DNA of 42,383 bases from a virus: positions 1 through 42,383 of the IMG/VR virus record IMGVR_UViG_3300034072_000964; one strand, 5' to 3'. A program made the position numbers and the translations under genes. The notes under the pieces were generated by a model that saw only the letters and a list, made by a program, of their open reading frames with translations, had not been told where the DNA came from and ran no database searches. Below, in pieces: positions 9,287 to 42,383 of the stretch. Position 1 is the stretch's first letter, and each line of letters begins with the position of its first letter.

Positions 9287-9514
9287 TTAAACCTCTTCAG
9301 GCGCATTCAGGCTTATAGTAAGATCATGTTCCGGCTGTACCATGTACCCAAAGCAAGATCCGGCATCAATCTCTTTTATAAAAACGCCATTAGAATATAA
9401 ATAATATTTCTTATTTTGGCTGTTATTCGTTATAGAGATCTGGTTTATATCTTCTATAGGCGGAATTTCTTCAACCGGAAAATCTTCAGCTGGAATTTCA
9501 TTTTCATCTGTCAT
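9287..9514 (-). CDS. Hypothetical acidic protein
   Basis: 75 aa, translationally coupled on both sides (4-nt overlap upstream, 2-nt gap downstream). Confidence 0.5.
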
Positions 9515-10029
9515 GGCGTTACAAAATAAACCGTTTGAGCATCTTTAGTTGTCAATGCGGCATATGCCGCGGCATTCAATGTTACTTCATTCAAAACTTT
9601 TGATGCGCCTGTAATTCCAGTTACATCAGAACGGATGAAAAGACTTGTATCAGCGGCGGGGCCAGTCGCTCCGGTTGCGCCAGTTGGCCCAGCTGGGCCT
9701 TGCGCTCCAGTATCCCCTTTGGGGCCTTGCGCGCCCGTTGCGCCAGTCGCGCCTGTATCGCCTTTAGGCCCCTGAGCGCCAGTTGCTCCAGTATCGCCCT
9801 TGGCTCCAGCTGGGCCAGCGATTCCTTGCGCTCCAGTTGCCCCTGTTGGGCCAGCTGGCCCTTGAATGCCTTGCGCGCCCTGAGCGCCTGTATCGCCCTT
9901 AATTCCTTGCGGCCCCGCGGGGCCAGCTATACCTGGGGGGCCTTGCTCAGCAACGCCAATTACATCAATCTGGATAGAGCCGCCAACCTCTATTGAATTT
10001 TGAGCTACTATAACATTTACTGTTGACAT
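9511..10029 (-). CDS. Collagen-like triple-helix repeat protein (fibre shaft)
   Basis: 172 aa with 32 uninterrupted G-X-Y triplets (aa 30-125), flanked by short non-repeat N- and C-terminal domains. Confidence 0.9.
9655..9942 (-). repeat. Collagen G-X-Y coding repeat, 32 triplets
   Basis: Runs from [21 protein letters not shown]... to ...GATGATGPA. The 9-nt periodic GGN CCN NNN units are visible in the DNA. Confidence 0.9.
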
Positions 10030-14629: not shown

Positions 14630-16180
14630 TCAGCAAACTATAGGCGAATTTAAAAAGCCGTCAAGGTTATCATCCGGCTCTGGCGGCTTCTCAGCAACAA
14701 ACTCAGAAATGGCCAGCGCAACAGCTCCATCAATCCGGCCTGTTGATTTTTTCTTATTCAATTTTCTGTTATCCGTTGCATCCGTTTCAACTGATGAATT
14801 GGCAACGCACATTGTTAAAACAGGATGGCCCCCATGCCTGTAAGATCCATTCAGTAATTTCTTTTCCATGCCTTCGATGGCAACGGTCATATCTTTGAAT
14901 CCTTGTCCGACTTCAACAAGGTTTATATTAAAATCAATTTTATCCAGCTCTTTTTTCAACAGCGCTATGCGCCATCTATCGTATCCCATAGCGACAATAT
15001 CAACATCCTTGAGGATCTGGGCCATGCGTAAAGCGACAAACTCATAATCAATCGTATGCCCTGGGCAAGCCTCAATATATCCTTGCTGATACCAAACATC
15101 ATATGGCGCTCTATCCCGCTTTGCGCGCTCAATTAAATTCTCTAATGGAGTCCAGAAATAAGAATATACCGGAAAAGAATTTGTTTCCGGATGATAACCC
15201 TGCAAAACCATAGCCGTTAAATCCGTTTTACCGGAAAGATCCAATCCGCCTGTTATGTTGATGCATTCAGAAATAGGCGGCGGATTTGCCCCTGATTTTT
15301 TCCAGATCTCTTGCGTTACAAACGGGCTGGAAGTTGTAACCCGCATATTTAGATTTAAGTTTTTAAAAGTATTTGTAAAAGTTGGCATCCGATTTGCTTT
15401 ATCGGCTTGCTTTCTCATATCGGCTTCAGATCTGAATATTCCCAGCGCTGGATTTGCTTTCTTCCATTGCTTTTCATCCATTACATCCGCATCAGCATCA
15501 GCGCAATGAACATGGCAAACCATCTTTTCCGGTTTATTCGTTTCATAATCATCAATCAAAATGCTCAACAGATCGCCATTGTTCTGGGCCTGAGTCGAAA
15601 TATAAAACAGCAAAGCATTTTTATATGCTCCCTGGGCCGTTGTAATCGCATCAATAAAATCCGATTGCGGCCCTTTGACTTGCCCAACTTCATCCAGAAT
15701 GGCAACAATCGGGCTTTTACCATGCGCGGTTTTGGCATCAGCTGATGTTGCCTGATATTCAACATTCATTTTCAAGCCAATAAGTTTTTTCCCCGATGGA
15801 ATAATTTTAATTCTGTCCCTGAGCTTTGGAGATAGATTTATTGTTTTGCTGGCAAGGTTAAAGACTTCAGCGGCTTGCTCTTTGCTCATAGCGCCAGAAA
15901 CGATACGGGAATTTTCAACCGCTTCAGGCCCAACCAAATGGGCCAATACGATAAAAGCAATCAAAGCGGTTTTTGCATTTTTCCGCGCAATCGAAAGAAT
16001 GGCTGTATCTGTAATGAACGGGTTATCATATACATCAATGATAAAATCTTTTTGAAACTGGAGCAATACAACAGGCTGGCCCATCAGATCGCCTTCAGGA
16101 ACAACGCAAAAACGCTCTATAAATGCAATGACGCGCTGGCCGCGGGTTAGTGGCTTAGGTTGTTGATTCTTCATTATCAT
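14630..16180 (-). CDS. terL: Terminase large subunit (Terminase_1-like)
   Basis: 516 aa. LLQFQKDFI... and the deviant Walker A in SIARKNAKTALIAF are present, with a nuclease-type C-terminal half. It lies upstream of the portal. Confidence 0.9.
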   Translation of the reverse strand: MIMKNQQPKPLTRGQRVIAFIERFCVVPEGDLMGQPVVLLQFQKDFIIDVYDNPFITDTAILSIARKNAKTALIAFIVLAHLVGPEAVENSRIVSGAMSKEQAAEVFNLASKTINLSPKLRDRIKIIPSGKKLIGLKMNVEYQATSADAKTAHGKSPIVAILDEVGQVKGPQSDFIDAITTAQGAYKNALLFYISTQAQNNGDLLSILIDDYETNKPEKMVCHVHCADADADVMDEKQWKKANPALGIFRSEADMRKQADKANRMPTFTNTFKNLNLNMRVTTSSPFVTQEIWKKSGANPPPISECINITGGLDLSGKTDLTAMVLQGYHPETNSFPVYSYFWTPLENLIERAKRDRAPYDVWYQQGYIEACPGHTIDYEFVALRMAQILKDVDIVAMGYDRWRIALLKKELDKIDFNINLVEVGQGFKDMTVAIEGMEKKLLNGSYRHGGHPVLTMCVANSSVETDATDNRKLNKKKSTGRIDGAVALAISEFVAEKPPEPDDNLDGFLNSPIVC

Positions 16181-16940
16181 CTATAAAGCATCCACAACCG
16201 CCGAAATCATATTTTTCATCCGGCTCAAGCTCCATCTTTTCAAATTGTTCCAGCGTAATGTAATGCTGTTTTTTGTTTATTGTTTTTCTCAGAAACGGAT
16301 GATCCAGATCCGGATTTTCTTCAACAAGTTTTTTCTGTTGCTGTTTATGCCATTCAAAACGCTCAGGGAAATTTTCCCTTAATTTTGCAAATTGAGCCAA
16401 TCCAGCGCGGACGCAAAAACCGCCGCAATTGTTATGAGCGAAACCCATCTTATATAATCTAGGCAATTCAATGTTGTATTGCTTTAAAAGATCAAGCCTT
16501 TGGCCATGAGTCATAAAGCTCCCTCTTTCGCAAAGAGGCGCTATAACTTTATAATCTGGATTATTTTTTTGCGCTCTGGGAAGCCTATGCTCTTCCTCAA
16601 GATCAATTCCCAAAACAAGAATAGGCGGCGATTCAAAAGTTTTTAGATATTTTTCCATCTGGACTCGCTTCAGGAAAATTGAGCATTGAGCTTTGCGCGT
16701 ATTGCCTTGATATTTTACATCCCTGAAAACTTCCCACGGATTCCGGCCATCAGTTAATTTTACAAGTGGTAAATTTAACTTGGCCGCGCTTTCGTCTAAA
16801 AATCTGTAAAGATCTTCATCTTCAATAAGTGTATCGCAAAATGCCAGCTGTATATCAGCTGGATCAACTTGCTGTTTTAAAATATGAGCCGCGGCAAAAG
16901 ATCCAAGACCACCGGAATAAGAAACAACATATTTCATCAA
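16155..16940 (-). CDS. PP-loop ATP pyrophosphatase / PAPS-reductase-like protein
   Basis: 261 aa. The N-terminal VVSYSGGLGS is an SGGxDS-type PP-loop. The C-terminal half has the Cys pairs NNCGGFC and GGCGCF. It overlaps terS by 4 nt and terL by 26 nt. Confidence 0.65.
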   Translation of the reverse strand: MMKYVVSYSGGLGSFAAAHILKQQVDPADIQLAFCDTLIEDEDLYRFLDESAAKLNLPLVKLTDGRNPWEVFRDVKYQGNTRKAQCSIFLKRVQMEKYLKTFESPPILVLGIDLEEEHRLPRAQKNNPDYKVIAPLCERGSFMTHGQRLDLLKQYNIELPRLYKMGFAHNNCGGFCVRAGLAQFAKLRENFPERFEWHKQQQKKLVEENPDLDHPFLRKTINKKQHYITLEQFEKMELEPDEKYDFGGCGCFIDDNEESTT

Positions 16941-19245: not shown

Positions 19246-19497
19246 TTATTTGTTGAGATTGATAACATTATCTTCAGCAACAGATTTTTTTCTTTTCAAA
19301 TCTGAAATTTCAAAAATTGCTGATGCAATCATATCATCCGGCTCTGAATGAAATTCAACAACGGATTTATGATTTCCTTTTTTATCAAAGATAGCCTGAG
19401 ATTCCCCCAGAGCTTCAGCATACGCAAAATGCGCGGCTTGTCTGCTATCAGTATCAGTTGTTATTTTGCCATTAAGCAAAACTTTATATTTAGCCAT
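19246..19497 (-). CDS. Hypothetical protein
   Basis: 83 aa from ATG 19497, with an AAGGAG RBS. The track start at 19518 lacks an RBS. Confidence 0.55.
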   Translation of the reverse strand: MAKYKVLLNGKITTDTDSRQAAHFAYAEALGESQAIFDKKGNHKSVVEFHSEPDDMIASAIFEISDLKRKKSVAEDNVINLNK

Positions 19498-19511: not shown

Positions 19512-19523
19512 GTCGCATTGGTT
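19512..19523 (-). promoter_or_regulatory. Leader 12-mer AACCAATGCGAC (copy 1 of 3)
   Basis: Lies 14 nt upstream of ATG 19497. Near-identical 12-mers are at 30661 and 30816. Confidence 0.5.
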
Positions 19524-19531
19524 ATTTAGGC

Positions 19532-19581
19532 AAGCTAAACCGATTCATAACCTTAATCAACAAAAATAATATTTATTATTT
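19532..19581 (-). promoter_or_regulatory. Promoter-like module A: A/T 20-mer, TTGATT, N17 containing GAATC, TAGCTT
   Basis: The minus strand reads AAATAATAAATATTATTTTT-G-TTGATT-AAGGTTAT-GAATC-GGTT-TAGCTT. It aligns without gaps to 30595..30644. Confidence 0.45.
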
Positions 19582-19968
19582 ATTTTTATAAGGGGAAACT
19601 ATTCCTAAAACTTTAAGCCAGCCATCCATAGGGGATTCAGCATAAACGGTATAGATCCGGCATCCGGCTTTTTCCATCAGCTCATGTAAATCAATTTGTT
19701 CCTGGGAACGCTTAGCAGGTTTCTTTTTTGTTTTATATTTCAGCTCTATCCACAATGGGCCATCTGGCAGGATAAAGCATAAATCAGGCCATCCGGCCAA
19801 AGCGCTCAGGCTTGATTCCATACGGCCCCTTACAGTCTTGCTAGATCCGTTCTGATCGCCATGAACCGTATAGCCATCCTTGCGCGCCATCGAAACAATA
19901 AAGGCTTGAATCAACAGCTCTGACCATTTCAGGGATGCATCAGCGGGATCTTTATTTAAAAACAACAT
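19576..19968 (-). CDS. VRR-NUC domain nuclease
   Basis: 130 aa from ATG 19968, with GAGG 7 nt upstream. GWPDLCFILPDGPLWIELKYK...SQEQIDLHELMEKAGCRIYTVY fits the VRR-NUC PD-(D/E)xK motif. Confidence 0.7.
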   Translation of the reverse strand: MLFLNKDPADASLKWSELLIQAFIVSMARKDGYTVHGDQNGSSKTVRGRMESSLSALAGWPDLCFILPDGPLWIELKYKTKKKPAKRSQEQIDLHELMEKAGCRIYTVYAESPMDGWLKVLGIVSPYKNK

Positions 19969-19980
19969 AAATGGCCTCAA

Positions 19981-20064
19981 ATGGTTGTTAATGGATAAGA
20001 ATGGATAAGAATAACACAAGAATTATATATATAAGTTATTGATATATATATTATATTATATTTC
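19981..20064. other. Candidate replication-origin-like region: 10-bp phased repeats plus a ~95% A+T tract
   Basis: ATGGATAAGA occurs twice in tandem (19991-20010), preceded by the degenerate copy ATGGTTGTTA. A 44-nt tract (20021-20064) is almost pure A/T. The region sits in a 269-nt gap next to the primase-helicase gene. Confidence 0.3.
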
Positions 20065-20237
20065 TTTCCCTCTTTCCCTATCTTATACATACTTTTTCTT
20101 TTTTGTCCCCTTTTGGGCGGGGCGCTTTTTTCTTTGGGAGAGGGTGTATAGGGGAATCTGGGAAAGAATTGCCAGTTTCCTTTTGAATCAAAAACTTAGG
20201 GTAATAATTCTTAGCCCGATTTGAGCATGGTCAACAA

Positions 20238-22813: not shown

Positions 22814-22939
22814 GTATTGTGCCTTATTGTGCTTTGTTATCGGGTGTAACTTTTTTTCAACTTTTCTGTTGACTTGATTTTTATACGGGTTTATTGCTGG
22901 ACTTACAACTGAAAAATTTAACAAGGAAAACAAAACATC
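22814..22939. promoter_or_regulatory. Divergent control region between the leftward and rightward gene blocks
   Basis: A 126-bp gap between divergent starts. TTGACT lies at 22869-22874 with TATTGC 17 nt downstream. TATTGTGC is repeated 10 bp apart at 22815 and 22825. Confidence 0.35.
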
Positions 22940-24333: not shown

Positions 24334-24348
24334 ATCAACAATGTAAAA

Positions 24349-24372
24349 GAGCGGCCCAGCGCCGCCCTTTTA
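24349..24372 (+). terminator. Putative intrinsic terminator after the DUF669 gene
   Basis: GAGCGGC-CCAGC-GCCGCCC is followed by TTTT. The T run is shared with the left arm of the 19-bp inverted repeat. Confidence 0.45.
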
Positions 24373-24467
24373 TCCATGCCCTGAAATGGAATCTGACTTG
24401 AAAGCCAGATCCATCTGAGTCCCCGCGCTTGCGGCATTTGGCTTATACTCAGGGCATGGATAAAAGG
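24366..24467 (+). other. Structured 102-nt element closed by a perfect 19-bp inverted repeat
   Basis: CCTTTTATCCATGCCCTGA (24366-24384) pairs with TCAGGGCATGGATAAAAGG (24449-24467). The 64-nt interior holds two further hairpins: ATGGAATCTG/CAGATCCAT and CTGAGT..CCGC-GCTT-GCGG..ACTCAG. Confidence 0.6.
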
Positions 24468-25450: not shown

Positions 25451-25658
25451 AGCGCCCGATATAATGCAAATTATGAATGCCGTTTATGAGGATGAAAAAG
25501 TTATCATTCCGAAAGGGCTTTTACAAGAATGCCATCTGGATGATATTTCAACTTTCCTTAGAAAGAATGGAATGATCAATCATGCATATATGATTGATGA
25601 AATTTCAAAAATATCCAGAGATCCTGAGAGTCAATTTAACACAACGGATTTTTATTAA
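25443..25658 (+). CDS. Hypothetical protein
   Basis: 71 aa. Overlaps upstream by 8 nt, with a TAATG junction downstream. Confidence 0.5.
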   Translation: MTEAPDIMQIMNAVYEDEKVIIPKGLLQECHLDDISTFLRKNGMINHAYMIDEISKISRDPESQFNTTDFY

Positions 25659-26065
25659 TGGTTATTTCATCCCCGATACCCGCTAAAGATCAAGCGCAAT
25701 GGGCAAAGATTTTTTCCGAGTCCGGTTATTCGATTGAATGGCTTCACAAGGAAACCGGAATCAATGTTCCGAGTCTGAATAAATATATTTACAATTCGCG
25801 CAAGCCGCGCAAATTGAACCGGATAAAAATGGAGAAAGCCATGAGTAAAATGAGCAAAGGGGAAAAGAAACTTCAGCGCCATCCGTCATTTGGATATGCC
25901 ACAGCTGAGCAGGTTGAATTGCTAAATTCCCTTGGCCTTGGCCCCCAGCGCGATTTCATACTTTCGCAAATCGAAAAACAAAATAAATCAGGCGGCAAAA
26001 TCGTTTTTGATGTTCCTGAGAATTTGAAAAAGAAAACTAAAAAAGAGAATGGAGATTTAATATAA
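25658..26065 (+). CDS. Hypothetical protein with possible helix-turn-helix
   Basis: 135 aa. YSIEWLHKETGINVPSLNKYIYNSRKP looks like an HTH. Confidence 0.45.
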   Translation: MVISSPIPAKDQAQWAKIFSESGYSIEWLHKETGINVPSLNKYIYNSRKPRKLNRIKMEKAMSKMSKGEKKLQRHPSFGYATAEQVELLNSLGLGPQRDFILSQIEKQNKSGGKIVFDVPENLKKKTKKENGDLI

Positions 26066-26598
26066 TGGGCAAAAGATCTGATTTCAAACGAGTCAAAAAT
26101 GACAAATATATAACGCCGATTGAAGGTGTAAACCCATTTGCCCATTACTTTGGATCTGGCAAGTATGTTGAGCCATGCGCGGCAAAAGGCCAGCTGATTG
26201 AAAAGCTCAAAATAATCAAAAGATTGAAATGCTCAGCGGCTTTTGATATTGGAACCGCATCCGGCATTGTAAAAAAGCGGGATGCATTGACTTTGAAAAA
26301 ATCAGATCTGAAGGGCGCTAAAAAAATTATTACAAACCCGCCTTGGAAGCGCGAGATCCTGCATAAAATGATTGAACATTTTATGAATCTTGTTCCTGAA
26401 GTATGGCTTTTATTTGATGCTGATTGGCCCCATACAAAACAAAGCGCGGATCTGATTAAGCATTGCAAGCTGATAATTTCCGTTGGAAGGCTGAAATGGA
26501 TTCCAAAGTCAAAATCTGTTGGCAAGGATAATTGCTGTTGGTACTTATTCAGCAAACGCCATACGGATGGGCCTAAATTTATTGGCAGAAAAAAATAA
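26065..26598 (+). CDS. N6-adenine (or N4-cytosine) DNA methyltransferase, small orphan type
   Basis: 177 aa. VEPCAAKG is motif I-like, followed by ITNPPWK, the (D/N)PP(Y/F/W) catalytic motif IV. No adjacent restriction gene. Confidence 0.7.
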   Translation: MGKRSDFKRVKNDKYITPIEGVNPFAHYFGSGKYVEPCAAKGQLIEKLKIIKRLKCSAAFDIGTASGIVKKRDALTLKKSDLKGAKKIITNPPWKREILHKMIEHFMNLVPEVWLLFDADWPHTKQSADLIKHCKLIISVGRLKWIPKSKSVGKDNCCWYLFSKRHTDGPKFIGRKK

Positions 26599-29214: not shown

Positions 29215-29341
29215 AATCTATGTTTACGATAATGGCAAGCCAGTTGAAACTGTTGAAAAAACAGATGCGACTGAAGCCAATACTTTTATCAATGAAAAAA
29301 TTCAAGCCGGATATAAGGTAAATTCATCATGGGAAAAATGA
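29201..29341 (+). CDS. Hypothetical small protein (below the ORF-track cutoff)
   Basis: Hand translation gives MPKIKIYVYDNGKPVETVEKTDATEANTFINEKIQAGYKVNSSWEK (46 aa). AAGGAAA RBS. Overlaps both neighbours. Confidence 0.45.
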   Translation: MPKIKIYVYDNGKPVETVEKTDATEANTFINEKIQAGYKVNSSWEK

Positions 29342-30021
29342 GAGCTTCAAATATTATTATTGGATGCGAAGAATCATTTACGATAGCTGGGGCTTTCCGT
29401 AGGGGGGGGTACAAGGCTTTTTCATGCGATACGGAACCGACTCGCGGCAATCCGGATTATCATTTCCAGATGGATATTTTCATTGTCCTTAAAGGCGGAT
29501 GGCTCAGGACTCAATCTGGAAAGCGGGTTTATATTGATAAATGGGATTTTGGAATCTTTCATCCGCCATGTACTTTCATAGCAAACTCCAGCGCAAAACA
29601 CCTTTACAAAGGCATGAATAAAGAGAACGGCAAAAATATGAAACGCTGGAAAGAAATGAAGGCTGGAGCTTTATTCTTTAAACGCTTGCTGGAAGCGGAT
29701 ATTGAAATGATCGCTGTTGAAAATCCTGTAATGCTGGGCTATGCGCTGGCAATCATAGGACAAGATCCAGCGCAAACTTTTCAGCCTTGGCAACATGGCC
29801 ATATGGAAGTAAAGCGGACTTGCTTATGGCTTAAAAATTTGCCGCCAATCAAAGAAACAAAAAATGTATATAATGCCATGATGAAATTGCCTTACGCTGA
29901 GCGCGCTAAAGTTCATCATTGCGCGCCAGGGCCAAACAGGGCAAAGATCCGATCAACAACGTATCCTGGCTTTGCCAGAGCTGTTGTAAAACAATGGGGC
30001 AAGCTCTTAACTAAAATTTAA
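29329..30021 (+). CDS. Compact C5-cytosine-methyltransferase-like protein
   Basis: 230 aa. FHPPCTF is a PC catalytic motif IV and VENPV is an ENV-like motif VI. TCLWLKNLPP and RSTTYPGFARAVVKQW are recalled from a phage C5-MTase-like family. Motif I is atypical. Confidence 0.55.
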   Translation: MGKMRASNIIIGCEESFTIAGAFRRGGYKAFSCDTEPTRGNPDYHFQMDIFIVLKGGWLRTQSGKRVYIDKWDFGIFHPPCTFIANSSAKHLYKGMNKENGKNMKRWKEMKAGALFFKRLLEADIEMIAVENPVMLGYALAIIGQDPAQTFQPWQHGHMEVKRTCLWLKNLPPIKETKNVYNAMMKLPYAERAKVHHCAPGPNRAKIRSTTYPGFARAVVKQWGKLLTKI

Positions 30022-30045: not shown

Positions 30046-30384
30046 ATGGATTGGAAAAGACTGATGAAGCTAACGATAATTGAAGCGCCATTTGAACAAG
30101 ATGAAAAGCGCCGTAACTGGTATTTAAAGCTATGCATTGAAGATTGCCTGAGTCGGGATGAAGCGCCCTTTTCAGCCGATGGATTTTATAGCCGATTCAT
30201 TGATCAAAAAGTTTTAACTCAGCGGGAAAAAACAATCAGCGCCGGATTGGAATGGGCGCGCTATGCTGATGTTGTCGCATTCTATACCGATCATGGAATC
30301 AGCGAGGCCATGAAAGACCGTATGAAAATCTATCAGGCCCAACATAAAAAGATTGAATGCCGGACTCTATTTCCTGCCAGCTGA
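30046..30384 (+). CDS. Hypothetical protein
   Basis: 112 aa. I see a weak resemblance to nucleoside-deoxyribosyltransferase-like DUFs but cannot verify it. The 3' end overlaps the convergent small gene by 18 nt. Confidence 0.5.
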   Translation: MDWKRLMKLTIIEAPFEQDEKRRNWYLKLCIEDCLSRDEAPFSADGFYSRFIDQKVLTQREKTISAGLEWARYADVVAFYTDHGISEAMKDRMKIYQAQHKKIECRTLFPAS

Positions 30385-30546
30385 TTTTTTCTTTTTCAAT
30401 TTCTTTGCATCTTCAGCCATCAGGGAAACTAGGTAATTCCCCAGATGCGGCTGTTGATTCTTTTTGACAATGCCCAGCTCAAGCGCCCTTGCCTCAGCCT
30501 TTGCCGTTGCGCCATCCGGCGCGTTAAATGATAGTTTTTCAGCCAT
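30367..30546 (-). CDS. Small DNA-binding-like protein, possibly ribbon-helix-helix (below the ORF-track cutoff)
   Basis: Hand translation gives MAEKLSFNAPDGATAKAEARALELGIVKKNQQPHLGNYLVSLMAEDAKKLKKKKSAGRK (59 aa). AAGGA RBS 9 nt upstream. It is the only minus-strand gene inside the plus block. Confidence 0.45.
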   Translation of the reverse strand: MAEKLSFNAPDGATAKAEARALELGIVKKNQQPHLGNYLVSLMAEDAKKLKKKKSAGRK

Positions 30547-30594
30547 TTATATAATCCTTTTCTGATTTAACCGAATCATAGCATAAAACGGCCT

Positions 30595-30644
30595 AAATAA
30601 TAAATATTATTTTTATTGCATCGGTTTTCGAATCATGCTCTATT
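30595..30644 (+). promoter_or_regulatory. Promoter-like module B: A/T 20-mer, TTGCAT, N17 containing GAATC, TCTATT
   Basis: AAATAATAAATATTATTTTT-A-TTGCAT-CGGTTTTC-GAATC-ATGC-TCTATT. The 20-mer is identical to module A, and TTG and GAATC sit in the same register. Confidence 0.45.
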
Positions 30645-30660: not shown

Positions 30661-30672
30661 AACCAATGCGAG
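30661..30672 (+). promoter_or_regulatory. Leader 12-mer AACCAATGCGAG (copy 2 of 3)
   Basis: Lies 17 nt upstream of ATG 30690. Confidence 0.5.
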
Positions 30673-30689: not shown

Positions 30690-30785
30690 ATGAAAAAGAA
30701 CAAATACCGTATAAGAACAATTCTTATAACATCAGCCTTTTGGCTGTTGATTTTTGGCTTCATTAAAAACTGGGGCTATTGCTAA
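30690..30785 (+). CDS. 31-aa basic/hydrophobic micropeptide
   Basis: MKKNKYRIRTILITSAFWLLIFGFIKNWGYC. AAGGAA RBS 7 nt upstream. One predicted TM helix. Followed by the hairpin GGGGC-GCAA-GCCCC. Confidence 0.4.
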   Translation: MKKNKYRIRTILITSAFWLLIFGFIKNWGYC

Positions 30786-30815
30786 TCTGGGGCGGGGCGC
30801 AAGCCCCAAACCTTC

Positions 30816-30827
30816 AACCAATGCGAG
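30816..30827 (+). promoter_or_regulatory. Leader 12-mer AACCAATGCGAG (copy 3 of 3)
   Basis: Lies 9 nt upstream of ATG 30837 and overlaps the GAGGA RBS. Confidence 0.5.
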
Positions 30828-30836
30828 GATAAAAAA

Positions 30837-31112
30837 ATGAATCATTTACAAGTTTGGGAAGCTGAAAAAGCATCTGAAAATAATACAGGCGATAGAGCTT
30901 GGCATTTATTTTGCTCTGAAGTTGAAAAATTGACTAAGCTCGACTCTCTTGATGGCGATCAAGAAAAAGACGGTTATTCTTTAGATGAAGCGTATGATTG
31001 GTTTTCGCGTAAATTCACGGCTGAAGATTATGCGAATCATCTTAATACGCCATTTGATAAAAGAAATTCTTATTTCTTGAATCAGGGGCGCGATTGCCCA
31101 AATTTTGATTAA
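30837..31112 (+). CDS. Hypothetical acidic protein
   Basis: 91 aa. Bracketed by the leader motif and its inverted copy. Confidence 0.55.
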   Translation: MNHLQVWEAEKASENNTGDRAWHLFCSEVEKLTKLDSLDGDQEKDGYSLDEAYDWFSRKFTAEDYANHLNTPFDKRNSYFLNQGRDCPNFD

Positions 31113-31120
31113 GTTTCCTG

Positions 31121-31187
31121 ACTCGCATTGGGAAGGGCGGCGCGGAAGGATGGATTACCAGACTATCCGCGCCGACTCCCAGCGAAT
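31121..31187 (+). other. Long imperfect intergenic hairpin containing the inverted leader motif (CTCGCATTGG, 31122-31131)
   Basis: Three pairings were read by hand: CGGCGCGG (31138-45) with CCGCGCCG (31167-74), TGGGA (31129-33) with TCCCA (31177-81), and TCGC (31123-26) with GCGA (31182-85). No T run follows. Confidence 0.5.
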
Positions 31188-33314: not shown

Positions 33315-33787
33315 TGAAAACTTTTAAGCATAAAAAGCGCGGTACTTTTTACAAAGCAATTGCTGAAGGCAATCTTCAGATTGATAATCCTGTATATGAT
33401 AACATGAAGCTCCAGATCTATCAGGGGGATGATGGAAAGTTTTGGGCTAGGCCAGTTTCAGAATTTAATGATGGCCGATTTGAAGAAATTCCAAATTGCA
33501 TTCATAACCCTGGATATGATCGAATCCATTCATGGTTTTCTTTATCGTATGCGGCCTTTGCTGTATTGCCGCGAGTCCTGATGAATGCCATGCCTGATAG
33601 ATGGCAACATAGAATGGCCGACTGTTTAGAAGAGCTTGATGCGGCATTCCCCAATGCTCCATCCATCAATTACTATTTAACGGCTAAAGGGAAACGGGGC
33701 CGCTTTGAAAAAATTCCTGAATGGCTTTGTAAATATCGTTATCCAGATCAATCCGAAATAGAGAAGGCAAAACGCCATGCCGATTAA
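33314..33787 (+). CDS. Hypothetical protein
   Basis: 157 aa. TAATG junction upstream. Confidence 0.55.
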   Translation: MKTFKHKKRGTFYKAIAEGNLQIDNPVYDNMKLQIYQGDDGKFWARPVSEFNDGRFEEIPNCIHNPGYDRIHSWFSLSYAAFAVLPRVLMNAMPDRWQHRMADCLEELDAAFPNAPSINYYLTAKGKRGRFEKIPEWLCKYRYPDQSEIEKAKRHAD

Positions 33788-34232
33788 ACAGCGCTTAAAA
33801 AAGACACCGCCGCCGCCTTGGAATGCTGAAGAGGATAAAATTCTTTTAGAGCGATCCCAGCGCGGCGATACAATGGCCCAGATAGCGGCCAGGATCAATA
33901 AAGCCTTCAATACAGCGCGGACTCGCATGAGCGTTGCAGGGCGGCTGGATAGGCTGAGAAAAGGGCCAGCAAAACGATTGAACAAATCAGCGCCGAAAAA
34001 GAAACCGATACAAACAACCTTGCCGCCCAGATCCATCAGCTCAGCGCCATTGCCGCCGACTGAGCCAGCGCCGGAAAATCTGATATTGCTTACAGATTTC
34101 AAAGCGGATACATGCCGCTGGCCATATGGTGATAAAGCGCCCTATAAATTTTGCGGCCAGAAAATAAGCGGCTCAAGATCTTATTGCGCCGCCCATACGA
34201 TTAAATCTGATGGGAAATCATCCAAGAAATAG
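33777..34232 (+). CDS. gcrA: GcrA-family cell-cycle regulator homologue
   Basis: 151 aa. The N-terminus W-NAEEDKILLERSQRGDTMAQIAARIN...RMSVAGRLDRL resembles the GcrA DNA-binding domain. A Pro/Lys-rich linker follows. The C-terminal CRWPYGDKAPYKFCGQKISGSRSYCAAH matches the GcrA C.WP.GD....FCG.....YC..H block. Confidence 0.8.
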   Translation: MPIKQRLKKTPPPPWNAEEDKILLERSQRGDTMAQIAARINKAFNTARTRMSVAGRLDRLRKGPAKRLNKSAPKKKPIQTTLPPRSISSAPLPPTEPAPENLILLTDFKADTCRWPYGDKAPYKFCGQKISGSRSYCAAHTIKSDGKSSKK

Positions 34233-39574: not shown

Positions 39575-42383
39575 GTTCTTTCTCTTCCGTATCCTGCAAT
39601 AATAATATCAGCCGTTCTGGAAACATAGGTTAGGCTGATCCGATTATAAACTTTTACTGTAAAAGTGCTAGGGCTTTTTTCTGTATATTCCAGTTCATCC
39701 GCCGCATCCCCATCTTGAATTGTTGTTGAAATAGCTGGGATTTCTTTAAACGCCGGAACAAAAGTTAATGCCAATCCCTCAACAGGTATTGTTACATCTT
39801 CGATTTTTTCAATTCTATCCGGCATATCAATGGAAACCGCAAGGCCGGAAACCTTAGGGGATATTCCGTATTGAAGGCTCGTAAGTTTTATCCTGAATTG
39901 AATGGCCCAGAAAGAGATATTCCCAGCGCGAAACTCTGCCCAATCGCTCCAATTATTTAGGGCCGGATCATCCGTTGTTACCCTATATTGAAGTTGTACT
40001 TCCCATGCATCAGATCCAATACCGAAAACATCTGACAAAGAAAAAATATCATCCTCAGATAAAAGATCATTTCCGCCAGCGCCGAAAACATCCGCCATTG
40101 CAAAAATATCAGCAACGGAAAAAATATTATTTATAAAAACGCCATTAGCAATAACAGATGCGCCAACAAAAGATGTAAAGAGCGCGCCCAGATCCAAAGA
40201 GTTTGCAAAATAGTAATACCCTTCAGCCGTATCAACATCATTCAAAACGACTCCGCCATCAACATAAGTTGTATTGGTTTTTGCTCCAGTAAAATCTGGG
40301 GCTTCATCCAAAACGGCAATGGCGTTTAAAAGATTCCCAGGATCATAAGTTATAACCGCCGTTGCATTTGCGGATTCATTCCCAGACAAATCAACAAATT
40401 TAATCAGATAAGTACCTGGCAGAAACGGAGTCGAGAATCTGTTTTCAGTTACCAGATCTTTCAACAGCTGGGCTGTATCCCATGTTGCGCCAATAAATTG
40501 AGAGCTATAACGGACTCTTGCGCCCCTTATATCAATTGCCTGAGAAGGATTCCATTCAAAGATGGCTGTATTGTCGCTTATATCAACAACAAAGCCTGTA
40601 ACATCATCCGGCAATCCTGATGCGCCAATGAATTTATATCCATTGATTTCCAGTGGAAGAGATTGCATAGAGCCGCCAGCGCGATAATAACGGATATGAA
40701 TATCATAAAGCGTATCATCATCAAGACCAGTTAATATGATACGCTCAGGAGTCGACTCTAAAACATTTGCATTATTCAGTTTATCAGTTCCTGAAACCCT
40801 GACTTTTACAGATGTTAAAATATTTTCTTCATTATTATTTTTTAAAGTGATAATGGCGCGGGGCGTGAAAGATCCATCAGAGTTTCTGAGCATAACCGAC
40901 TCATCAGATTGAATCGTTATCAGCTCAGGCGGTACTGGCCTTTTGAAAACAAGCGGCTCAGTAATGCGGCTATTCCAAACTGGAATAGGGGAATTTTCAG
41001 CCGTGAAAATTTCAGGCGCATAATCAATGGCTGTAAGTTTGGCGCTCAGATCATCTTGCGGCTCAATACGGGTTAGAATAACATCGACTTCCCCGCCAGC
41101 CTCAACAATATATCCAAGATCGCCGATAAGCGGCAAAATACTGTTATCATCAATACTTAGCGGCCTATCAAATGGCGTTGTAAAAACAAAAGTTTTCGTT
41201 TCGCCAACAGATGTATTCAGCTGTTTATACATTTGGCTCCCATCAGATAATCTAAGCCTCATATAAAATGTTGATGCGCTGGGGATTGCAACCGTATCAT
41301 CAAAAGTAATGCTGGTAATCTTGCCAGAGCCATCAACAGCGAAAGATTTAATCCGGCCATCACCAACTGCAATGAGCGGAATATCATGGGCCAGCTTTAC
41401 ACGATCGCCACGAATGGCAACAAGGTTTTCAAAATCCATTACAACTGAATGAGACTCAGGGCGCAAAACAATTGCGGCGAAATGGCGCTTGCCTGTTTTG
41501 AAAGCAAAATCAGAATTGGTACAATGCATCAGTTCCAAAACTTCAAAATCTGTTGCGGGAATCAGGCCATTAGATCCATCCTCATTATATCCATCCCTGT
41601 AAACAATTCTTTCGTCTTGTTGAAATCCTTTTTCTTCATTTCTGAATTGGACTCTCAAGGCATGGGGAAGATCCGCATAAATCAATTCAGCGGAATAATC
41701 GCGGCTGTTGCGCGGGGTTATGATTTGAACAATGTCATTTTTTATTCTATCAATCGCAACCGATCTTTTCCCATCAACAATAGCGGGGCTTGCGCTTCCC
41801 GCGCTGGCTATATCCTGCAAAACATCCTCAAGGGAAGTTTCATAATCTATAACCCTGTTATAAGAATATCCCTGTTGTTCGCAATGGATATGCCAATCCT
41901 CAAGGCCAGCAATATCAATTTTTGAATCAGCCAGTGGCTTTGCATTGGCCTCCCCCTGCAAAGCGTAACGATATATGGAAGCCGGATTTGAAGTAACTCT
42001 TTCTTCCCATAGGCCAGTATCGCTGTTGTAATCCGGAATTACCAAAGAGAAAATTCCATTCAACTGATCAAGAGCGCCGTTCAATTGATCTGTTGCTTTT
42101 ATGCGGATGGCAGTACCGTTTAAATTTGCCAGCTTAACAGGCGCGCCGTATTTTACGCTCCTGATCGCTGTAAAATAAACATCATTCAAAAATTGATCTG
42201 AATCGTTATCTAACGATAAGCGGCGGATTCTGAAATCATATTTCCCGTTTGTTGGGAAAACGACTCTGACAGAACGGCGCAAGGCTTCAGTTTGACTTGC
42301 AGTAATGTTTAACTGATTAACCGTTATAGATCCGCCGCTTATATGAAGCGAATTAGCGCCCGTAACAGATGGCGCAAAATCAG
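39571..42383 (-). CDS. Host-specificity / central tail-tip protein J-like, 3' part (same gene as 1..1442)
   Basis: The frame is open to the window end. The M of track ORF 39571..42282 is an internal TTG (Leu). Reconstructed gene: 1442..1 plus 42256..39571, or 4128 nt and 1375 aa. Size and position after the M/L/K-like genes fit gpJ / GTA g15. Confidence 0.75.
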   Translation of the reverse strand, partial: DFAPSVTGANSLHISGGSITVNQLNITASQTEALRRSVRVVFPTNGKYDFRIRRLSLDNDSDQFLNDVYFTAIRSVKYGAPVKLANLNGTAIRIKATDQLNGALDQLNGIFSLVIPDYNSDTGLWEERVTSNPASIYRYALQGEANAKPLADSKIDIAGLEDWHIHCEQQGYSYNRVIDYETSLEDVLQDIASAGSASPAIVDGKRSVAIDRIKNDIVQIITPRNSRDYSAELIYADLPHALRVQFRNEEKGFQQDERIVYRDGYNEDGSNGLIPATDFEVLELMHCTNSDFAFKTGKRHFAAIVLRPESHSVVMDFENLVAIRGDRVKLAHDIPLIAVGDGRIKSFAVDGSGKITSITFDDTVAIPSASTFYMRLRLSDGSQMYKQLNTSVGETKTFVFTTPFDRPLSIDDNSILPLIGDLGYIVEAGGEVDVILTRIEPQDDLSAKLTAIDYAPEIFTAENSPIPVWNSRITEPLVFKRPVPPELITIQSDESVMLRNSDGSFTPRAIITLKNNNEENILTSVKVRVSGTDKLNNANVLESTPERIILTGLDDDTLYDIHIRYYRAGGSMQSLPLEINGYKFIGASGLPDDVTGFVVDISDNTAIFEWNPSQAIDIRGARVRYSSQFIGATWDTAQLLKDLVTENRFSTPFLPGTYLIKFVDLSGNESANATAVITYDPGNLLNAIAVLDEAPDFTGAKTNTTYVDGGVVLNDVDTAEGYYYFANSLDLGALFTSFVGASVIANGVFINNIFSVADIFAMADVFGAGGNDLLSEDDIFSLSDVFGIGSDAWEVQLQYRVTTDDPALNNWSDWAEFRAGNISFWAIQFRIKLTSLQYGISPKVSGLAVSIDMPDRIEKIEDVTIPVEGLALTFVPAFKEIPAISTTIQDGDAADELEYTEKSPSTFTVKVYNRISLTYVSRTADIIIAGYGRERT
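42257..42383. repeat. Direct terminal repeat, exact copy of 1..127
   Basis: Identical base for base to 1-127. Confidence 0.97.

Follow-up and report, generated by a model that had tools for sequence, protein, structure and literature searches.

Could a phage time the transcription of its later genes with a methylation reader borrowed from the alphaproteobacterial cell cycle? This question is raised by the IMG/VR virus record IMGVR_UViG_3300034072_000964, whose positions 1 to 42,383 were analysed as one stretch of 42,383 nucleotides (hereafter the window). An initial annotation had pointed to two copies of a promoter-like module carrying a GANTC site, in a phage that also encodes a GcrA homologue, and had proposed a methylation-sensing transcription switch. 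Judged from their anatomy and genomic position, the two modules are probably the promoters of two post-early transcription units, termed here P_A and P_B. That both promoters are controlled by GcrA and methylation is a proposal we hold more tentatively. The promoter-like anatomy, the position of the modules, the GcrA homologue and the GANTC site of module B speak for the proposed switch, but non-coding DNA is not significantly enriched in GANTC, neither methyltransferase of the phage is CcrM-like and the register of module A is not shared by a related phage.

Module A, on the minus strand at 19581-19532, reads AAATAATAAATATTATTTTTGTTGATTAAGGTTATGAATCGGTTTAGCTT, and module B, on the plus strand at 30595-30644, reads AAATAATAAATATTATTTTTATTGCATCGGTTTTCGAATCATGCTCTATT; a direct readout returned both 50-nt strings at these coordinates. 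The A/T block described as identical over 20 nt is indeed so, and the identity runs one base further upstream, giving the 21-nt A/T-only tract TAAATAATAAATATTATTTTT (19562..19582, minus strand, in module A, where it shares bases with the stop codon of the VRR-NUC-like gene upstream; 30594..30614, plus strand, in module B). Past the tract, only 15 of 30 positions agree by eye, TTG and GAATC included, and what had been called gap-free copies of a 50-nt module is therefore a 21-nt identical tract followed by a loosely similar promoter core. The common register of that core stands, since GAATC lies 8 nt past TTGNNN and 4 nt ahead of TNNNNT in both copies. Module A consists of the -35-like hexamer TTGATT (19555..19560, minus strand), GAATC in the context TGAATCG (19542..19546) and the weak -10-like hexamer TAGCTT (19532..19537, minus strand). 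The corresponding elements of module B are TTGCAT (30616..30621, plus strand), GAATC in the context CGAATCA, the reverse complement of TGATTCG (30630..30634), and TCTATT (30639..30644, plus strand). The spacing is of the sigma-70 type in both (TTGATT-N17-TAGCTT and TTGCAT-N17-TCTATT), with weak -35 and -10 elements; an alternative frame of module B, aTTGcA-N17-CTcTAT, matches a rhizobial sigma-70 consensus. With the -10 hexamer taken as -12 to -7, GAATC occupies about -21 to -17 relative to the predicted starts of both modules, with its centre at about -19. Across the genome, the pattern TTG-N10-12-GANTC-N3-5-TNNNNT has the two modules as its sole non-coding matches, and four further matches lie inside genes.

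The UP elements of strong bacterial and phage promoters are A/T tracts at -40 to -60 that are bound by the C-terminal domain of the alpha subunit of RNA polymerase. On its sequence, the tract has the position and composition of such an element. The 23 nt upstream of the -35 are 91-100% A/T at all four instances, that is, at both modules in this phage and in its one close relative, compared with 78% at an early promoter of the phage. The modules thus resemble UP elements in having the A/T tract directly upstream of the -35 at all four instances, but their match to the Escherichia coli UP consensus is partial by eye, and the tract is palindromic and identical at two sites, neither of which is required for UP function. 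A terminator function of the tract was considered and rejected, because the RNA folds (-1.8 to -3.1 kcal/mol) are not better than those of shuffled sequences. Boxes for IHF and CtrA were also considered in the modules by eye, and none was found.

The position of the modules in the genome is consistent with post-early promoters. The replication genes form two divergent early operons, both of which start at about 22.8-22.9 kb. The leftward one comprises the primase-polymerase, an A/T-rich origin-like region and the VRR-NUC-like nuclease, and the rightward one comprises AAA_24, DUF669, a Cas4-like exonuclease, two methyltransferase-like genes, a helicase and DUF7768. The leftward early operon ends with a gene at whose stop codon module A begins, pointing towards the genes for MazG, HNH, the small and large terminase subunits (TerS and TerL) and the structural proteins. 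Module B comes after the final gene of the rightward early operon and points towards a series of small genes with gcrA at its end. The directions given in the initial annotation are thereby confirmed. By comparison, the early rightward promoter, TTGACT-N17-TATTGC (22871..22899, plus strand), which is kept in the relative, has a better -35, contains no GANTC and is less A/T-rich upstream.

What links these modules to GcrA? In Caulobacter crescentus, GcrA rides on sigma-70 RNA polymerase, and the GANTC sites of directly activated promoters are "narrowly centered around -20" or lie at +2 to +30, leaving the -10 free (Haakonsen et al., 2015, PMC4647560). Relative to their predicted starts, both modules have a GANTC at the first of these positions and inside the 40-bp limit for GcrA promoters (PMC4647560); module A has a second site, GAGTC from 19502, at about +25, overlapping the Shine-Dalgarno (SD) sequence AAGGAG. 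The flanks preferred in the GcrA regulon are YGAKTCK/TGATTCG (PMC4647560). The site of module B, CGAATCA, is the exact reverse complement of TGATTCG, and that of module A (TGAATCG/CGATTCA) has one mismatch to YGAKTCK. The exact TGATTCG/CGAATCA occurs five times in the genome, and two of the five are 57 nt apart in the module-B intergenic region. The second of these (30573..30577), on the upstream side of the module-B site, precedes the ATG of a divergent small open reading frame (ORF) by 27 nt, and is not kept in the relative. The modules resemble the GcrA/CcrM promoters of C. crescentus (PMC4647560; Fioravanti et al., 2013, PMC3667746) in their sigma-70-type core with GANTC about 20 nt upstream of the start, in the TGATTCG-type flanks of module B and in the presence of a GcrA-family protein in the same genome. 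However, the phage genome has about 43% G+C, its reader is phage-encoded and divergent, the phage has no CcrM-family writer, and its modules have, in addition, an A/T-only tract upstream and a conserved 11-nt element in the leader.

The mechanism that we favour is the following. P_A would read leftward into the MazG, HNH, terminase and structural genes, and P_B rightward into the small-gene block ending in gcrA. Each promoter would consist of a UP-like A/T tract, a sub-optimal -35, a 17-nt spacer with GANTC at about -19 and a sub-optimal -10, and these weak cores would be boosted by N6-methylation of the adenines in GANTC, for which the host CcrM, or possibly a methyltransferase of the phage, would be responsible. 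GcrA already present on sigma-70 RNA polymerase, at first that of the host and then that of the phage, would read the site and promote open-complex formation. Because gcrA lies in the P_B unit, positive feedback and an early-to-later switch would be expected. The GcrA/methylation layer is plausible in that it fits in position at both modules and at module B also in sequence and conservation, with predicted starts and a single relative as its basis.

Several observations weigh against control by GcrA and methylation; they concern the promoters themselves, the close relative, the distribution of GANTC and the phage proteins. As for the promoters, a generic consensus promoter scan listed neither module, because their -10 hexamers are poor. 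At 5.8-8 GANTC per kb, the chance that a random GANTC falls in a 17-nt spacer is about 0.07-0.1. There is also no terminator between the upstream gene and module A, so the late genes could be expressed by read-through without P_A.

The evidence from related phages is mixed. Primase relatives were sought in IMG/VR, the JGI metagenomes, the GTDB genomes and a set of 5.8 billion proteins. One close relative was found, IMGVR_UViG_3300020045_007163, whose primase is 86% identical and whose aligned DNA is about 74% identical, and all other primase relatives are at most 62% identical (67% for one partial contig). The relative also encodes GcrA (56% identical) and the small methyltransferase (58% identical); a search with the tape-measure protein did not bring up the rest of its contig. 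Its module B keeps, in register, the TTG, CG(G/A)TTTTCGAATC(A/G)TG, TATTG of the -10 region and the leader TTACTGAGTAACAACCAATGCGA, but the 21-nt tract is replaced by a different A/T-rich sequence (91% A/T). Its module A keeps 16 of 20 tract positions, TTGATT and the leader, but GAATC stands 1 nt, not 8 nt, after TTGATT, and comes near -20 only with a different hexamer pair, TTTTTA ... TAAAAT. The genes right after module B differ between the two phages, so conservation is better for the regulatory cassette than for the cargo immediately behind it. Beyond this pair, three primase relatives examined in context (L011-L013) share only the replication module, contain neither a module nor the leader 11-mer, and in two cases have P22-like virion genes; the 11-mer was not found in any distant primase-relative locus examined. 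Leader-pattern searches returned only the one relative and chance coding matches, and the promoter-plus-leader pattern gave four unrelated chance matches in the GTDB genomes. The exact A/T tract followed by TTG has no further occurrence in IMG/VR, and no isolate phage was matched when 20 kb were compared by megablast. The search of related phages proposed in the initial annotation thus yields one relative with the module-B core in register, but with the GAATC of module A shifted, and no module in the three others examined in context.

The distribution of GANTC was then examined over the whole genome. All ten non-coding GANTC positions listed in the initial annotation exist (14256, 19542, 20154, 20185, 24389, 24417, 30573, 30630, 31120 and 31174). 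With the genome divided by 72 gene calls, 22 sites fall in 2,725 nt of non-coding DNA (8.1/kb), compared with 5.6/kb in coding DNA; the difference is not significant (Poisson p = 0.078), and the case for intergenic enrichment is weak. The genome as a whole is enriched instead. There are 244 GANTC sites genome-wide, compared with 158 expected from base composition, 143 from a second-order Markov model (half of the both-strand figure) and 173 from a third-order Markov model, i.e., an observed/expected ratio (O/E) of 1.4-1.7, and the excess is seen for all four central bases (1.35-1.72). Coding DNA contains 226 sites, compared with 141 ± 8 under synonymous-codon shuffling, which ranks GANTC second among the 256 XYNZW patterns, whose z-scores are broadly spread (sd 3.6). 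Sites with YGAKTCK-type flanks number 34, compared with 61 predicted from independent flanks, an expectation that ignores CpG effects. In 43 other phage loci the O/E reaches at most 1.26 by base composition and 1.18 by third-order Markov, and the value of 1.4-1.5 found here is therefore outside their range. Among phages that share the replication module, GANTC is purged in five (O/E 0.16-0.38 by base composition), and two loci from one further replication-module contig are near-neutral (0.67-0.81). That GANTC is in excess here and not avoided, unlike in relatives, counts in favour of the proposed switch.

The sites are also poorly conserved. Compared with the relative, 34% of the GANTC sites are retained, which ranks 115 of 218 patterns, i.e., at the median, and the enrichment is therefore one of density and not of conserved positions. 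Of the ten listed sites, the relative keeps 30630 and has 19542 in a shifted position, 14256 is not comparable, and the other seven (20154, 20185, 24389, 24417, 30573, 31120 and 31174) have no counterpart there. In addition, Rhizobium phage RHph_X2_24, which encodes GcrA, has 2 GANTC sites in 28 kb, none of them non-coding, so a phage gcrA by itself does not imply GANTC-bearing phage promoters. The distant relative L013, the sole one seen with a PF01555 methyltransferase, is near-neutral for GANTC (O/E 0.8-0.9). The association of PF01555 carriage with GANTC neutrality, and of purging with no visible methyltransferase, is one lead, not a result. As a separate observation, other patterns are strongly depleted in coding DNA relative to synonymous shuffles or Markov models, namely CTNCG/CGNAG (O/E 0.11/0.19), CTNCT/AGNAG (0.17/0.27) and CCNGG (0.42), which may reflect avoidance of restriction or of SD-like sequences.

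Could the modules then be ordinary sigma-70 promoters with a UP-like tract, in which GAATC is incidental or was inherited through promoter duplication, while GcrA is directed at genes of the host? At all four instances the tract is placed and composed as expected for such promoters, and GANTC is dense enough throughout the genome that a chance occurrence is not rare. The non-significant intergenic enrichment, the average retention of GANTC, the loss of most intergenic sites and the shifted register of module A all agree with this explanation, as does the host-directed role given to phage GcrA in the literature: for gp222, the homologue in phage phiCbK, the suggested role is to reprogramme replication genes of the host, and promoters of the phage itself were not put forward as targets (Gill et al., 2012, PMC3556154). 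On the other hand, the chance that independent spacers share a pentamer in the same register is about 0.01-0.02, and here the pentamer is a GANTC at the known GcrA position. Moreover, the flanks at module B are exactly the top-ranked ones and are conserved, and a weak -35 together with a weak -10 in both modules is typical of activator-dependent promoters. On balance, we regard this explanation as rather unlikely.

Control by GcrA further depends on the proteins of the phage. The gcrA homologue reported at 33777-34232 (plus strand), which closes the unit that follows module B, is confirmed by a match to PF07750 (E = 9e-13; 49.3 bits against a gathering cut-off of 26.9; residues 15-141). The NCBIfam equivalog model for cellular GcrA is not reached (26.6 against 280 bits), and the protein is thus a member of the GcrA family rather than an orthologue-grade match. 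Residues 85-141 align to the crystallised GcrA-SID (5yix_B and 7ye1_G), with CRWPYGD...FCG...YCAAH kept; the conserved C-terminal motif CxWPxGD...FCG...YC is the one that binds sigma-70 region 2 in GcrA. In the DNA-reading helix, TRMSVAGRLDRL aligns with TRNAVIGKVHRL, where R33, G38 and R42 are kept by eye and K39 is replaced by R, and the reading of G...C is plausibly retained. However, two of the methyl-pocket residues (R33, N34, I37 and G38) are changed, N34 to M and I37 to A (L and G, respectively, in the relative), and H41 is replaced by D. Methyl sensing, and even the target sequence, may consequently differ from those of Caulobacter GcrA; the substituted pocket residues are hydrophobic or small, which speaks neither for nor against methyl reading. 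Relatives of the protein are few: one distant IMG/VR locus, a 79% identical protein on a 1.8-kb contig, and five isolate phages at no more than 31% identity over most of the protein, with one partial match at 33%. GcrA-like genes are also annotated in cyanophages, a further point against the proposed control.

A possible writer is the methyltransferase at 26065-26598 (plus strand, phrog_799), called adenine-type in the initial annotation, which belongs to the early rightward operon. Its product is indeed amino-methyltransferase-like (VEPCAAKG ... NPPW), but it is not of the CcrM family. It has no Pfam match at E <= 1, no PF01555 and no NCBIfam model, and its motif I (VEPCAAKG) stands ahead of motif IV (NPPW), opposite to the order in CcrM/HinfI, where IV (DPPY) comes before I. 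We read it as an amino-methyltransferase outside the beta class of CcrM/HinfI. A second methyltransferase-like gene at 29329..30021 (plus strand; phrog_757, E = 6e-48), which the initial annotation did not mention, has the C5-type motifs HPPCTF and ENP, and its counterpart in the relative appears to be split into two ORFs. Neither phage methyltransferase is thus of the CcrM/HinfI family.

With these proteins, a stronger version of the proposal can be formulated, namely a self-contained epigenetic circuit with a writer (the early phage methyltransferase or the host CcrM), a reader (the phage GcrA) and two GANTC promoters. One promoter would drive gcrA, giving positive feedback, and the other would drive the virion genes, while the many surplus GANTC sites, mostly of low affinity, would help to gather polymerase loaded with GcrA on the DNA of the phage, and related phages without such a strategy would purge GANTC instead. 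We consider such a complete circuit doubtful.

The identity of the A/T tract raises another possibility. The 20-nt block has two exact copies, compared with 0.06 matches expected by chance at <=3 mismatches, and the pair is the longest inverted repeat of the window. The tract is also a perfect 8-2-8 palindrome, AAATAATA-aa-TATTATTT; there are six perfect 8-2-8 palindromes in the genome, compared with 0.64 expected, and two of the six are this tract. It could be an operator for a dimeric phage DNA-binding protein that switches both promoters together. The complete identity (21 of 21 positions) amid otherwise diverged flanks and the perfect symmetry both argue for an operator. So does a third near copy, AAATAAGAAATATTATTTAT (9397..9416, minus strand), which has 2 mismatches, keeps the symmetry and resembles the upstream sequence of module B over 32 of 40 nt; it lies inside ORF 9287-9514 with no promoter core after it, and is a candidate third site. 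Candidate binding proteins are the helix-turn-helix-like product of 25658-26065 and that of a 59-codon ORF divergent from module B (30367..30546, minus strand), which lies 49 nt away and encodes a small, basic, two-helix protein, a candidate DNA binder. However, the palindrome is broken at module A of the relative and the tract is absent at its module B, and the two modules there have no common specific site in register. In addition, the 59-codon ORF product has no family match, a mediocre model with a predicted local distance difference test (pLDDT) score of 70.6 and no Foldseek neighbour, which leaves its assignment as a ribbon-helix-helix protein unsupported. In the relative, it corresponds to the C-terminal domain of a homing-endonuclease-like GIY-YIG protein of 142 aa. 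A shared operator is, in our estimate, an improbable reading of the tract.

The same GIY-YIG gene bears on a non-regulatory explanation, in which the 21-nt identity is a recombination scar or module-junction linker, copied from A to B when the region upstream of module B was rearranged with the involvement of a homing endonuclease. In the relative (L001 798-1396), the GIY-YIG gene and an extra small gene form an insertion upstream of module B, at the place where the window has only the 59-codon remnant, and the region looks, from this comparison, like a hotspot for homing-endonuclease-type insertion. The tract resembles the sequence of the relative at A and not at B, from which A looks ancestral, and the genes downstream of module B differ between the two phages. 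A scar, however, would not explain why the TTG/GAATC/-10 core and the leader are kept at B irrespective of the tract, why all four sites are at least 91% A/T, or why position and composition fit promoters. This explanation appears very improbable.

The best-conserved stretch of both modules is neither the tract nor the core. An 11-mer, AACCAATGCGA, which had gone unremarked in the initial annotation, is shared by both leaders just 5' of the SD sequence. In module A it lies at 19513..19523 (minus strand), 15 nt upstream of the ATG at 19497 and followed by the SD sequence AAGGAG, and in module B at 30661..30671 (plus strand), preceded by the small palindrome GTTACtgaGTAAC and 18 nt upstream of the ATG of a 31-codon ORF (30690-30785). 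A second rightward copy (30816-30826, plus strand) stands 10 nt before the ATG at 30837, behind the hairpin GGGGC-GCAA-GCCCC (30794-30807), and both hairpin and copy are kept in the relative. The three sense copies are all 9-18 nt upstream of a start codon, and are found at the same three places in the relative. The 11-mer is predicted to be single-stranded, and an inverse copy (31122-31131) forms the base of the stable hairpin 31123-31185.

Based on these features, control could be exerted at the RNA level, with the 11-mer, AACCAAUGCGA in the transcript, as a translational or stability operator and the promoter likeness as secondary; the 11-mer might then pair with the complementary CUCGCAUUGG at the base of hairpin 31123-31185. 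The regular placement and conservation of the copies, their predicted single-strandedness and the inverse copy within a very stable hairpin (z = -4.8) with compensatory changes in the relative are all consistent with such an operator. However, the 11-mer matches no known Rfam family, and 16 of 100 shuffles gave at least three matches at <=1 mismatch, so only the exactness and the placement of the copies are striking. The TTG, the GAATC and the A/T tract are also left unexplained. RNA-level control is compatible with the modules being promoters and does not exclude it; as the primary function it seems unlikely to us. Structured 5' leaders at the two modules were considered and rejected (z-scores of -0.5 to -0.7).

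The two hairpins of the module-B unit deserve description in their own right. The first (30794-30807), 3' of the 31-codon ORF, is a five-pair GC stem with a GNRA tetraloop, the loop being GGAA in the relative, and it is like a boxB hairpin in shape only. The second (31123-31185, plus strand) is a GC-rich structure of 63 nt between two genes of the unit, with -38 kcal/mol and z = -4.8; it is conserved in the relative (z = -3.9) with compensatory stem changes, and has no U-tract and no Rfam match.

As for the phage as a whole, the assembly is circular, with an exact 127-nt terminal repeat (1-127 = 42257-42383) that is the signature of a circular or circularly permuted genome, and the unique genome is 42,256 bp with 43% G+C. 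By its predicted genes, the phage is an HK97/lambda-like siphovirus, which encodes TerL, a portal protein, an S78 protease, an HK97-fold capsid protein, a J-like tip protein and NlpC/P60 among the virion and lysis-type genes, together with TerS, a PAPS-reductase-like protein, HNH, an SLT domain and MazG. No integrase or repressor was seen among the scanned proteins, which represent part of the ORFs. The PAPS-reductase-like gene (phrog_424; 16155-16940, minus strand) stands between the TerS and TerL genes. A coral-associated phage linked to Rhizobiales was reported to combine cysH with gcrA (PMC11309003), which may offer an ecological clue to the host. Upstream of the tape-measure region, an ORF at 9511-10029 (minus strand) contains about 240 nt of 9-nt periodic repeats that encode collagen-like Gly-X-Y triplets, and it forms the G+C-rich peak of the window. 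The origin-like region (19990-20120) adjoins the primase gene; the direct repeats GGGAAAGA (twice) and TTCTTATCCAT (twice) flank the A/T-only stretch ATATAATATAATATATATATCAATAACTTATATATATAA, and this A/T core is found again in the distant primase relatives L011, L012 and L013. A bidirectional terminator-like hairpin (24344-24372) follows the DUF669 gene on its 3' side, next to a 15-nt inverted repeat (24370-24384 / 24449-24463; TTATCCATGCCCTGA ... TCAGGGCATGGATAA) around about 64 nt. Its arms are kept in the relative and its inner bases covary, and the repeat may be a structured RNA or an operator pair. Rfam and tRNA scans of the window gave no match.

How would GcrA-read promoters of this kind compare with what is known? 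Phage GcrA homologues have been annotated since 2012 and, in the literature searched, are discussed only for a possible influence on host genes or on the choice between lysis and lysogeny; no proposal was found there of phage promoters as GcrA targets, or of any cis target on a phage genome. Like phiCbK gp222 and its relatives, the protein described here is a Pfam GcrA-family member in a tailed phage, but the GcrA proteins are only about 28% identical and, unlike in phiCbK, candidate cis sites are located in probable post-early promoters of the phage itself. T4 MotA/AsiA and the sigma-remodelling factors (reviewed in PMC7403470) embody the same concept, in which a phage cofactor on sigma-70 RNA polymerase redirects it to weak phage promoters. 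The cofactor family would be another one here, and the proposed cue would be an N6-methyladenine mark in the spacer, which is not described as a temporal cue of phages in the literature searched. GcrA-read phage promoters, if real, would thus be a variation on a known mechanism that has not previously been proposed in that literature.

If the promoters prove to be independent of GcrA, the finding shrinks to a pair of ordinary UP-element promoters. The excess of GANTC in this genome, set against its near-total avoidance in related and GcrA-bearing phages, is a separate question, which concerns how CcrM-type methylation shapes phage genomes. If the proposal is true, this would be the first phage to schedule later transcription through a reader of N6-methyladenine taken over from the cell cycle of alphaproteobacteria, and its two promoters would provide a compact system for studying the specificity of GcrA.

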